Shown in pieces: positions 1 to 1,572 of a stretch of 64,000 bases of DNA; position 1 is the first letter of the stretch, and each line of letters starts with the position of its first letter. Position numbers and translations under genes: made by a program. The DNA lies in the IMG/VR virus record IMGVR_UViG_2548876794_000003, positions 1 to 64,000 of that record. One strand, written 5' to 3'. The notes under the pieces are model-generated. The model ran no database searches. It worked only from the letters and a program-made list of their open reading frames with translations, and had not been told where the DNA came from. The stretch is from a virus (Duplodnaviria > Caudoviricetes).

Positions 1-212
1 AAATCATTTTTCACAAAGGCGGTGCTTATCATCTTTACAAGGATTATCAAGACAAAGGCTATGCGCGCAGTGTTGGTTATGCTAATAGCAGTCTCAAAGA
101 TTTACGATGGACGTCAAAAGGTCGCATCTTCGTACATAGCATCCTTTTAGATTGCGGGTTCGAAGAGATAGACGAGCCGATGCGCCAACAGTCCTTATTT
201 AAACAAGGATAA
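1..212 (+). CDS. Phage antirepressor, KilAC (ANT) domain, 3' part only
   Basis: Frame starting at nt 3 reads ...GAYHLYKDYQDKGYARS...LRWTSKGRIFVHSIL..., matching the KilAC pattern (LY..YQDKGY...WT.KGR.F); TAA at 210-212. Not in the ORF track because it is truncated. Confidence 0.7.
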   Translation, partial: IIFHKGGAYHLYKDYQDKGYARSVGYANSSLKDLRWTSKGRIFVHSILLDCGFEEIDEPMRQQSLFKQG

Positions 213-219
213 CACTTTC

Positions 220-275
220 GCATACAAGCATACTTGCATACACACATACAGATATACACGCATACATACATATAA
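220..275. repeat. Small cluster of GCATAC-type 8-bp repeats (parS-like)
   Basis: gcatacaa gcatactt gcatacac acatacag atatacac gcatacat; same unit as at 38.5 kb and 48.9-50.2 kb. Confidence 0.7.
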
Positions 276-276
276 T

Positions 277-311
277 AAGAAGTCGCACTCCATGTGCGGC
301 TTCTTTGTTTT
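277..311 (+). terminator. Intrinsic terminator of the antirepressor gene
   Basis: aagaagtcgcac-tccat-gtgcggcttctt followed by tgtttt. Confidence 0.65.
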
Positions 312-315
312 GCGC

Positions 316-343
316 AAAATAAAAAGACAGCGTTAGCTGCCTT
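316..343 (-). terminator. Intrinsic terminator of the tRNA operon
   Basis: Minus strand AAGGCAGC-TAAC-GCTGTCTT then TTTATTTT. Confidence 0.65.
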
Positions 344-436
344 GGGGATATGGGCTGTGCAAGTCCACATTTGAATCTAATTGAAAAACCAAAGATTGGA
401 GCGAATAGTGAGTGACTAGCTCTTATTCACATAGAA

Positions 437-533
437 TGGAGGAGCAGGTGAGATTCGAACTCACGAACCGCCTTATAAAGACGGTTGCCTCGTTAGCAGT
501 GAGGTCCCTTCGACCGGGCTTGGGTACTGCTCC
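437..533 (-). tRNA. tRNA-Ser(GCT), long variable arm, CCA encoded
   Basis: GGAGCAG/CTGCTCC acceptor, anticodon loop CT-GCT-AA, variable arm AACCGTC..GGCGGTT, T arm GTGAG-TTCGAAT-CTCAC, 3' TCCA. Confidence 0.92.
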
Positions 534-656: not shown

Positions 657-935
657 TTATTCTATGTATTTCACCAAATCAATGATTGGTCCAAAGTGAT
701 GTTCCACGATACTAACGTTGTTGTTGCTGACAAGCGTTAGTGCATCACTATATGCGGCTTGGTAATAAGCGATCTTTTTCTCCATGAAATCGTTTGGAAT
801 AATAATCCACTCGATAGAATCGAAGGCTTTTACCTTTACCATCATGACGTCTCTACGTTGATTTTGAACATTCGCTTCGATTGCAAGCTGAAAAGCTTCT
901 ACTAAAAGTTGTTTTTTAGTGGGAGACGAAAACAT
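657..935 (-). CDS. Hypothetical protein (92 aa) inside the tRNA cluster
   Basis: Strong SD AAGGAGGT upstream of ATG; protein-like composition. Confidence 0.75.
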   Translation of the reverse strand: MFSSPTKKQLLVEAFQLAIEANVQNQRRDVMMVKVKAFDSIEWIIIPNDFMEKKIAYYQAAYSDALTLVSNNNVSIVEHHFGPIIDLVKYIE

Positions 936-1026: not shown

Positions 1027-1086
1027 TGGTGGAACTCTGCAGGATTTGCACCTGCCAATTCATCGCGGCCTGCAGCCGAGAGTCCA
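1027..1086 (-). ncRNA. tRNA-like RNA lacking a normal anticodon arm
   Basis: (T)GGACTCT-CGGCTGCAGGCCG-CGATGAATTG-GCAGG-TGCAAAT-CCTGC-AGAGTTCC-ACCA: acceptor-like stem, one hairpin, T arm, ACCA end. Confidence 0.55.
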
Positions 1087-1087
1087 T

Positions 1088-1310
1088 CGTAGACAGAGAA
1101 AGAATTTCTCTGCCCTTGTTTTGTCTGTATGAAAAAGTAAGACAATGCTCTTTAAACCTGTGTAGCTAAACACTTAAAAGGATGTGTAGATTGTGGCGGG
1201 TTGACTGGACCCATAATAGGAAGTCATCGTTGTATTGAAACAACCAGTAGGGGTATTGAGTCCCTATTGCAACCTTGGATGACTGATGTGGCTTACGCTG
1301 CCTTACAGCA
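1088..1310 (-). ncRNA. Candidate structured ncRNA
   Basis: Three-way junction AGTCATC/GATGACT enclosing TAGGG/CCCTA and GTTGT/ACAAC hairpins, plus GGGT/ACCC and GGCAGAGAA/TTCTCTGTC hairpins; no credible ORF. Confidence 0.4.
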
Positions 1311-1496: not shown

Positions 1497-1572
1497 TGGC
1501 TCCGCCAGCAGGATTCGAACCTGCGACAACTTGATTAACAGTCAAGTGCTCTACCAACTGAGCTATGGCGGA
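1497..1572 (-). tRNA. tRNA-Asn(GTT), CCA encoded
   Basis: TCCGCCATAGCTCAGTTGGTAGAGCACTTGACTGTTAATCAAGTTGTCGCAGGTTCGAATCCTGCTGGCGGAGCCA, canonical 76-nt cloverleaf. Confidence 0.97.

Follow-up and report, generated by a model that had tools for sequence, protein, structure and literature searches.

A conserved tRNA top-half mimic without an anticodon arm in a phage tRNA cluster, a possible punctuation signal of an operon transcript

What can an element that carries the T arm and the CCA end of a tRNA, and has no anticodon arm, be doing inside the tRNA cluster of a phage? The question is raised by the minus strand at 1027–1086 of the IMG/VR virus record IMGVR_UViG_2548876794_000003, of which we analyzed the first 64 kb (referred to below as the window); the entire record comprises 178,960 bp and was judged to be 78% complete. 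An initial annotation had described a tRNA mimic of about 60 nt at this site, with a T arm and an ACCA end and without an anticodon arm. Its geometry, position and strand support this description, and so does one compensatory T-stem change. The observations available for the mimic are its fold geometry, its position and strand, its conservation, the single compensatory change, a lack of coding potential and the kinship of its T arm with phage T arms. Judged from sequence and comparison, the mimic is a real, conserved, phage-type imitation of the top half of a tRNA lacking the anticodon arm, with a function that is predicted. Our tentative reading is that selection maintains it as a genuine RNA element, which arose from a phage tRNA and copies the acceptor/T-arm half of a tRNA. 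With similar caution, we propose that it could be a surrogate tRNA that punctuates an operon transcript and is recognized by the tRNA end-processing enzymes of the host.

In the minimum-energy fold of the 60-mer the two ends are paired, and the resulting acceptor-like stem of 7–8 bp is stacked on the T stem. As the initial annotation had stated, the T arm consists of a perfect 5-bp stem (G1055-C1039, C1054-G1040, A1053-U1041, G1052-C1042, G1051-C1043) and a UGCAAAU loop (1050–1044), and a single other hairpin is present. The loop has G in place of U55, and the T arm is otherwise perfect. The acceptor is separated from the T arm by 23 nt in which there is no anticodon arm, while the sequence 3′ of the T arm, comprising the acceptor strand and the tail, reads AGAGUUCCACCA; UCCACCA is the typical ending of bacterial tRNA-Ala and of transfer-messenger RNA (tmRNA). 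The acceptor can be paired in three registers. The first, at −20.0 kcal/mol, has a bulged U1034, a U1086-A1030 pair and a CCA tail, and the second, at −19.6 kcal/mol, is a continuous 7-bp helix (GGACUCU/AGAGUUC) followed by C and then ACCA. The third register, with G2-C71, G3-U70, A4-U69, A73 and CCA, requires a U1xC72 mismatch and a 13-layer acceptor/T stack. The G3-U70/A73 arrangement pointed out in the initial annotation thus exists, but only with that mismatch, and the two registers of lowest energy give A3-U70 instead of G3-U70. Set against the top half of a tRNA, the element therefore has a T arm that is perfect except for the G at U55 and a 7-bp acceptor that shows, depending on the register, a CCA placed after 2 nt, a bulge or a mismatch. 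The local fold dominated in folding windows of 60, 121 and 401 nt, with a pairing probability of ~0.7–0.95 for the acceptor core and 0.93 for the T stem; in a folding window begun exactly at 1264, a long-range rival pairing competed and the local acceptor fell to ~0.35.

None of the standard models recognizes this fold. ARAGORN made no call at the mimic with the default threshold, with a relaxed threshold (113 mostly spurious calls) or with introns allowed (-i0,400), and Rfam gave no call on the mimic strand at the gathering threshold or at E ≤ 10 over 300–1700 and 1010–1100. At the mimic, Rfam signaled only RF04354, on the antisense strand and with 18 bits; the antisense strands of genuine tRNAs are matched by this model as well. 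With no anticodon arm, 23 nt from acceptor to T arm, no RF00005 match at E ≤ 10 and no ARAGORN call, the mimic was rejected as a tRNA. Relaxed ARAGORN and the Rfam covariance models for tmRNA and YrlA had been proposed in the initial annotation as checks, and with no call at the mimic from the former and no match from the latter, neither its tmRNA reading nor its Y-RNA reading held. A tmRNA or its tRNA-like domain was rejected on the lack of an RF00023 or RF04321 match at E ≤ 10, of the GAUUCGAC D-loop and of GGAC before the T arm; ARAGORN at default threshold reported neither a tmRNA nor a tag peptide for the window or for the whole record (the relaxed threshold produced noise-level permuted-tmRNA calls, none of them at the mimic), and no gene for SmpB (PF01668) was found in the 78%-complete record. 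A YrlA-type Y RNA was rejected as well, with no RF02553 match and no TROVE domain found in the same incomplete record.

Chance is not a serious explanation of the mimic, because its geometry is rare and because it is located in a 1-kb tRNA cluster on the strand of the tRNAs. We used a geometric descriptor, written after the element was seen, that combines a U[GU]C[AG]A-type loop, a 5-bp T stem, a stacked 7/7 acceptor, N1-2 followed by CCA, and 15–60 nt between acceptor and T stem. In the 179-kb record it matched tRNA-Asn and the mimic only, compared with a mean of 0.05 matches per genome over 200 Markov shuffles. The sole open reading frame (ORF) overlapping the mimic, a frame of 61 aa at 1087–902, is interrupted in one lineage (L080), where C1072 -> U turns CAG into TAG; a coding reading was therefore rejected, and the mimic is regarded as non-coding.

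Relatives were found by an exact-protein look-up of ORF92, the gene following the mimic, and of two cluster mates, which recovered 24 contigs that are 97–100% identical over 1.3 kb and come mainly from soil metagenomes, together with one NCBI assembly. All 24 keep the 60 nt of the mimic without an indel, and indels are present nearby. Three sites of the mimic are changed in the lineage represented by L074, L077, L080 and L081, namely C1054 -> U, G1040 -> A and C1072 -> U. The first two form one pair of the T stem, which is preserved as U-A by the double change, and the third is in the loop of the small GC hairpin. A rough estimate of ~0.005 was obtained for a preserved double change on one of ~17–25 pairs, given 34 differences in 1300 nt. 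The T stem of the mimic is identical to that of tRNA-Asn, and in the same lineage tRNA-Asn underwent G64 -> A (window equivalent 1509), at the T-stem position that changed in the mimic, without a change of the partner, which left a C50xA64 mismatch. Because the true tRNA left the same G -> A change uncompensated, the comparison shows a mimic stem that would be constrained at least as strictly as its own.

Most of these relatives have a second copy of the hairpin motif ~3.5 kb downstream, in a 600-nt spacer before a gene for a deoxynucleoside monophosphate (dNMP) kinase; this copy is not in the window's record. It shares 13 nt around the loop (AGG-UGCAAAU-CCU), in a stem that is covarying and longer (8 bp). 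CACCA follows at an equal distance and the shared AUACAUAAUU 10-mer shortly after, whereas a 5′ acceptor strand is lacking. Exact blocks of 13, 5 and 10 nt are thus common to the two copies, with 0/9 identity in the nine bases between conserved blocks, and the spacing to the 10-mer differs (3 vs. 6 nt). Such blocks speak against a duplicate in neutral decay, and the second copy shows that the hairpin and the 3′ motif can exist without tRNA-like closure. A promoter reading of AAUACAYAAUU was tried and rejected, since this motif is not repeated in the window's genome. Separately, we observed that in L063:9356-9598 (also in L064-L066, L070, L072 and L073) a perfect 16-bp long-range helix (CUUACUAUCCUUUAAG and its complement) encloses the second copy together with a ~150-nt GC-rich structured stretch, followed on the 3′ side by an intrinsic terminator and then the dNMP-kinase gene. 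The region matched no Rfam family at E ≤ 1 and looks like an unannotated leader or non-coding RNA (ncRNA).

The loop itself points to the likely origin of the T arm. A pattern derived from both copies (the loop, nine free bases and CACCA) was present in 37 IMG/VR contigs, with ~2 expected by chance, an expectation that rests on an assumed size of IMG/VR; in 596 Gb of prokaryotic sequence it was present in 26 contigs vs. ~17 expected, mostly by coincidence within coding regions. With the third T-stem pair relaxed, the pattern had 68 matches, and the UGCAAAU loop at canonical tRNA spacing gave at least 119. Among the matches listed, those with canonical spacing include ordinary phage tRNAs (Tyr-GUA seven times, Thr, Glu, Leu and Ile) and a permuted phage tmRNA (L219, RF04321, 120 bits), and there are also phage RNAs of 69–97 nt whose match to the tmRNA model RF00023 (38–47.5 bits) is confined to its two ends. 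Four RNAs matching RF00023 (in L186, L245, L244 and L236) have G3-U70, A73, CCA, the GAUUCGAC loop and the UCCACCA end, while a short hairpin replaces the mRNA/pseudoknot part and there is no tag; by their sequence they are putative mini-tmRNAs consisting of the tRNA-like domain (TLD) only. UGCAAAU is therefore a common T-loop type of phage tRNAs, tmRNA and mini-tmRNAs. Since the loop with GG/CC closing pairs is recurrent in phage T arms, the mimic is clearly built from a phage-type T arm and derives from a phage tRNA.

With one extra base in the spacing, which is the spacing of the mimic, the same loop is found in tRNA-like RNAs of 86–160 nt (L082-L118 and L145-L175; e.g., L083:2127-2242, L090:173-283 and L104:1595-1701). 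These possess perfect 7-bp acceptors, Leu- or Tyr-like D arms, an encoded A73-CCA and an extra acceptor/T layer (a 6-bp T stem or an 8-bp acceptor), and an enlarged middle replaces the normal anticodon arm. Many of them lie inside large phage tRNA arrays, and neither ARAGORN nor Rfam called them. At the same spacing, 129–151-nt tRNA-like genes occur in five cyanobacterial genomes from as many genera (L123, L127, L132, L136 and L143). Their T loop is UGCAAAU, their acceptor has 8 bp and in some cases G3-U70, and the anticodon arm is replaced by a structured insert of ~66 nt with covarying stems; the Rfam tRNA model scores this form at 34.8 bits by skipping the insert. In a descriptor scan of 2.6 Mb of fetched phage loci for other anticodon-less forms, the mini-tmRNAs were accompanied only by false positives within genuine tRNAs and by a single further element, of 69 nt in L175, whose T arm is the same. 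Apart from that L175 element, the mimic is the only anticodon-less form of its kind found. In three phage contigs and two contigs from metagenome-assembled genomes, again with the extra base in the spacing, the 3′ part is followed by ACCA and then by the 5′ part, as in a permuted gene. Apparently permuted tRNA-Tyr-like genes were observed in L102 (minus strand, ~2700–2960), L105, L113:540-700, L126 and L135, in the order of anticodon, variable and T arms, 3′ acceptor strand with ACCA, 4–6 nt, 5′ acceptor strand and D arm, with complementary flanks such as AAGAUACA with UGUAUCUU. In L126, a ROOL RNA (257 bits) adjoins a large tRNA array.

The anatomy of the locus suggests what such an element might do. 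The order along the minus strand is a promoter-like site (1678–1649), tRNA-Asn, ~410 nt of non-coding sequence, a hairpin, the mimic, 91 nt, ORF92 and tRNA-Ser, and a simple scan of this strand from 1700 to 350 revealed no terminator-like site. The acceptor/T-arm stack is thereby placed between a conserved non-coding block and ORF92, with no terminator-like site between them. The RNA neighboring the mimic seems to be likewise constrained, because the hairpin directly upstream has G.U, A-U or G-C at its closing pair (1113/1093) in three lineages, with its loop (1104–1101) rewritten and its stem kept, and because a 136-nt block is invariant among the relatives; the whole intergenic region has 21 variable sites in 410 nt (~5%), from which ~7 would be expected in the block. 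From its sequence conservation, the block at 1123–1258 may be an ncRNA.

RNase P and RNase Z recognize the acceptor/T-arm stack, and for this reason we take the mimic as a surrogate tRNA. Among the three functions offered in the initial annotation, the RNase P processing signal fits the anatomy best as a prediction, because the mimic is situated within the operon, with a conserved non-coding block on its 5′ side and, on its 3′ side, an mRNA to which a tRNA is joined in turn. One minus-strand transcript would probably contain tRNA-Asn, the ~410-nt non-coding stretch, the mimic, ORF92 and tRNA-Ser. An RNase P cut at ~1086/1085 would give the upstream conserved non-coding RNA a defined 3′ end. 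In the register with C73 followed by ACC, RNase Z would cut after C1031, and if the encoded CCA is used, exonucleases would trim back to it. Either 3′ route would set free an ORF92 mRNA with its 5′ end defined by the mimic and its 3′ end by tRNA-Ser, and a mini RNA of 59–60 nt with a CCA end would be released; otherwise the mimic might be retained on the mRNA as a 5′ structure. The features of the locus are collected in Table 1.

Table 1. Coordinates of the mimic, its parts and neighboring features in the window, and of the putative mini-tmRNAs of other contigs.
Feature	Position	Strand	Description
tRNA top-half mimic, ~59–60 nt	1027..1086	-	Acceptor-like stem, small hairpin, 10-nt linker, T arm, ...CACCA end
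5′ acceptor strand GGACUCU	1079..1085	-	U1086 able to add an eighth pair with A1030; invariant in all relatives
Small GC hairpin CGGC-UGCAG-GCCG	1066..1078	-	At the place of the D arm; pairing probability 0.84–0.97
T arm	1039..1055	-	5-bp stem GCAGG/CCUGC, loop UGCAAAU
3′ acceptor strand and tail AGAGUUC-C-ACCA	1027..1038	-	Alternative parse A-GAGUUCC-A-CCA
Upstream hairpin, 8–9 bp	1093..1113	-	Directly 5′ of the mimic
Invariant non-coding block, 136 nt	1123..1258	-	0 variable sites among relatives
Local hairpin, stem UAGGG/CCCUA	1248..1266	-	Contains GGGACUC; variable sites 1261–1259 in its loop
ORF92	657..935	-	Strong GGAGG ribosome-binding site; phrog_3915; start 91 nt 3′ of the mimic
tRNA-Asn(GUU)	1497..1572	-	First gene of the same-strand cluster; ARAGORN, Rfam
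tRNA-Ser(GCU)	437..533	-	3′ border of the ORF92 segment; ARAGORN, Rfam
Putative mini-tmRNAs	L186:995-1064; L245 3151-3219 (-); L244 5907-5976 (-); L236 6963-7059 (-)		RF00023

Several points weigh against the proposal of a selected surrogate tRNA. The acceptor is non-canonical in every register, with a bulged U, a 2-nt gap to the CCA or the U1xC72 mismatch. The folding energy of the 60-mer is not unusual compared with its shuffles (z = −0.81), and an unremarkable folding energy is usual for RNAs of tRNA size. The comparison comprises 4 distinct mimic sequences and one compensatory event, a depth that leaves the shuffle control of covariation without power. The sequences also hint at possible gene conversion between the T arms of the mimic and tRNA-Asn, which would make the two T-stem changes less independent. 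In more distant relatives, with a ribonucleotide reductase (RNR) small subunit 56–67% identical, the whole tRNA locus is absent and no long-term retention is evident. A second copy without a 5′ acceptor strand suggests that conservation may apply to the hairpin rather than to the tRNA-like fold. Furthermore, the shared transcript of the operon, each of the cuts and whatever role the mini RNA would have are inferred. Searches beyond the 24 contigs did not extend the comparison: blastn of the intergenic region against phage records matched tRNA-Asn only, an exact-pattern scan of IMG/VR for the intergenic RNA gave 0 matches, and blastn and nhmmer found nothing of it in 61 loci from RNR relatives. 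In the closest of these relatives the RNR genes have no tRNAs nearby, and the UGCAAAU T loop is absent from the records altogether.

The absence of a register with a canonical acceptor, together with the lack of any tRNA or tmRNA model that scores the mimic, is compatible with a relic, i.e., a phage gene for a tRNA or a tmRNA-like RNA in decay, from which an internal deletion removed the D and anticodon region and which now has no function or persists as an inert hairpin. The second T arm with a 3′ end in the relatives, truncated at its 5′ side, would be expected where tRNA arrays decay, the T stem identical to that of tRNA-Asn may indicate a partial duplicate, and conservation alone says little in a lineage that is at most 3% diverged. 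However, a decaying gene does not readily explain a T-stem change that is compensated in the mimic and was left uncompensated in the true tRNA-Asn, nor an identical extent of 60 nt, free of indels in all relatives despite indels nearby. The 23 nt from acceptor to T arm also hold a tight GC hairpin instead of D-arm remnants (no A14, GG or A21), and the exact blocks of the paralogous copies, with 0/9 identity between them, speak for selection on motifs and not for uniform decay. We thus regard a relic as unlikely, though deserving of attention. The second copy can also be taken in another way, with the UGCAAAU hairpin, CACCA and the downstream AUACAYAAUU forming a binding or regulatory site in RNA or DNA, and the acceptor pairing being secondary. 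Both copies have the same loop, closing pairs, CACCA spacing and 10-mer, with the 5′ acceptor strand dispensed with in the second, and both lie 5′ of genes on the same strand. Nevertheless, a single occurrence in the 179-kb record of the window speaks against a general promoter or operator, no sigma-A-like promoter fits, and the distance to the 10-mer is 3 nt in one copy and 6 nt in the other. That the same loop is found in >180 T arms of tRNA type in phages elsewhere favors a tRNA-type fold over a private protein site, and a 7-bp acceptor stacked on the T stem would be improbable by chance, so we consider such a site improbable.

The mimic might instead act as a chargeable decoy: the released ~60-nt CCA-ended RNA would be a substrate of alanyl-tRNA synthetase (G3-U70, A73, CCA), most likely charged with alanine, or a bait attacked at its 3′ end by enzymes or toxins whose targets are the 3′ ends of tRNAs. 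A reduced counterpart of the mini-tmRNAs, it would divert tRNA-acceptor-end defenses or modulate stress systems, co-expressed with a Tad2-like gene. This alanine-acceptor proposal of the initial annotation is weak and we give it a low probability, since the register with G2-C71, G3-U70, A4-U69, A73 and CCA is present, but only with a mismatch at 1-72 and a 13-layer stack, and two registers of lower energy give A3-U70. The TLD-only mini-tmRNAs of other phages (69–97 nt) do combine G3-U70, A73 and CCA with the same UGCAAAU loop, but the mimic has neither their GAUUCGAC D-loop nor their GGAC motif and does not match RF00023, and neither SmpB nor a CCA-adding enzyme was found in the 78%-complete record. 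The next gene, ORF92, resembles Tad2-like (Thoeris anti-defense) proteins in its ESM Atlas model (TM 0.71 over 75 residues) and is followed by a variable accessory island; this likeness is a structural lead only, with no Pfam match and an AlphaFold2 single-sequence fold (pLDDT 46) too poor for a fold search. A longer, 238-nt RNA with its acceptor closed by GGGACUC (1264–1258), tmRNA-like or a large tRNA-like form, is very unlikely. The initial annotation had correctly located this strand, which in the window forms 7 pairs with GAGUUCC, including G3-U70, and gives the minimum-energy fold if the RNA starts exactly at 1264, and other phages do have 86–160-nt tRNA-like RNAs with the same T loop and the same 13-nt 3′ strand. 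Even so, positions 1261, 1260 and 1259 vary while the 3′ strand is invariant, so that 4/7 haplotypes have an uncompensated internal mismatch (91.8% paired), and the variable sites are located in the loop of the local hairpin at 1266–1248. There is no D-arm-like sequence after GGGACUC, no tmRNA or tag peptide by ARAGORN and no tmRNA by Rfam, and the local acceptor wins in the 401-nt folding window. Least probable of all in our view is a tRNA-shaped intron or a mobile insert of phage tRNA anticodon loops. Introns are present in Lak megaphage tRNAs, and a tRNA may even be encoded within one of them (PMC6784885), but those introns are inside tRNA genes and the mimic is not inside one. This candidate was rejected, as no flanking tRNA halves were found around the mimic by ARAGORN (0–400-nt introns) or by RF00005, although Rfam detected a tRNA with a 66-nt insert elsewhere, and no RtcB was found in the 78%-complete record.

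Beyond the mimic, the surrounding sequence indicates the probable source. The genes close to it encode a class Ib ribonucleotide reductase, the flavodoxin NrdI, a glutaredoxin, a thymidylate synthase and a primase-like protein. Ribosome-binding sites in the window are of the GGAGG type and the closest cultured relatives via NrdF are Bacillus phages (~52% identity), and we therefore assign the record, from these sequence features, to a large phage of a probable Bacillota (Bacillus-like) host. By ARAGORN, the whole record has only 2 tRNAs, which are encoded by the minus strand at the beginning of the window. Two hairpins at the upstream side of the 136-nt block (1266–1248 and ~1244–1229) have UCAAUAC in both loops. 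A long-range 10-bp helix on the minus strand (1304–1295/599–590) was considered and rejected, because G594 -> A in 5/10 haplotypes leaves an uncompensated C-A mismatch. In the lineage of L077 and L080, T971 -> A abolishes the stop codon of a short frame 5′ of ORF92 (11 codons, ATG at 1004), which is thereby fused in frame to ORF92 and yields its 115-aa form (P0003). ORF92 and the 113-aa protein have no relatives beyond their own clusters (≥90% identity), and KLEB27-3 is the sole cultured phage with an ORF92 homolog, near which there is no tRNA. The region 3′ of tRNA-Ser (window 1–436; L067:6500-6935) differs in gene content among the relatives, with at least 3 cassette variants carrying pRha/ANT genes, and similarity to the relatives stops exactly at the end of the window's record; this region is a variable accessory island or a rearrangement point.

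Known systems offer several parallels to the mimic. In the mascRNA/MALAT1-type modules and in mitochondrial tRNA punctuation, tRNA-like folds within longer transcripts serve as cutting signals for RNase P. The mimic resembles them as a ~60-nt tRNA-like fold without a working anticodon loop inside a predicted longer transcript, which would give a CCA-ended small RNA; an RNase P cut would likewise set the 3′ end of the upstream RNA, and a coding segment lies between tRNA-shaped signals. In contrast to mascRNA/MALAT1, the mimic belongs to a phage and its bacterial host, its CCA is encoded and not added, its middle consists of one small hairpin and a linker, and its cleavage is predicted. The stable RNAs C and D of phage T4 (species 1 and 2; ~120–140 nt) are encoded in the T4 tRNA cluster, co-transcribed with it and matured by tRNA-processing enzymes. 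Like them, the mimic is a small non-tRNA RNA within a phage tRNA cluster, although the T4 RNAs are longer. The putative mini-tmRNAs and the permuted tmRNA of L219 share with it the UGCAAAU loop, the ...UCCACCA end, a length of ~60–70 nt, the missing anticodon arm and a hairpin in the middle. Unlike the mimic, the mini-tmRNAs have a clean acceptor with G1-C72, G2-C71 and G3-U70, the GAUUCGAC analog of the D-loop, GGAC before the T arm, a 12-layer stack and an RF00023 score. Non-proteinogenic staphylococcal tRNA-Gly has GUGC in its T arm. These tRNAs were described as lacking the canonical G18G19 and, less explicitly, U55C56 (PMC4574755), and the staphylococcal parallel drawn in the initial annotation is confirmed to this extent. 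They depart in the T loop from the universal U55 and are not for ordinary decoding, as seems to be the case for the mimic, but they form a full cloverleaf with an anticodon; the UGCAAAU of phage tRNAs and tmRNAs is the closer parallel.

If the processing reading is true, a stripped-down tRNA look-alike cuts a mixed operon of tRNA, mRNA and non-coding RNA, and mitochondrial tRNA punctuation and the MALAT1/mascRNA module would have in the mimic an equivalent from a virus of bacteria, one that standard tRNA finders miss. The UGCAAAU T loop may matter more than the mimic itself, as it is the mark of numerous phage RNAs of tRNA type, most of which lack annotation: TLD-only mini-tmRNAs, tRNA-like RNAs of 86–160 nt in which a 13-nt 3′ strand is combined with an enlarged middle, and apparently permuted forms. 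Taken together, these RNAs suggest that phages employ tRNA-shaped RNAs beyond decoding.

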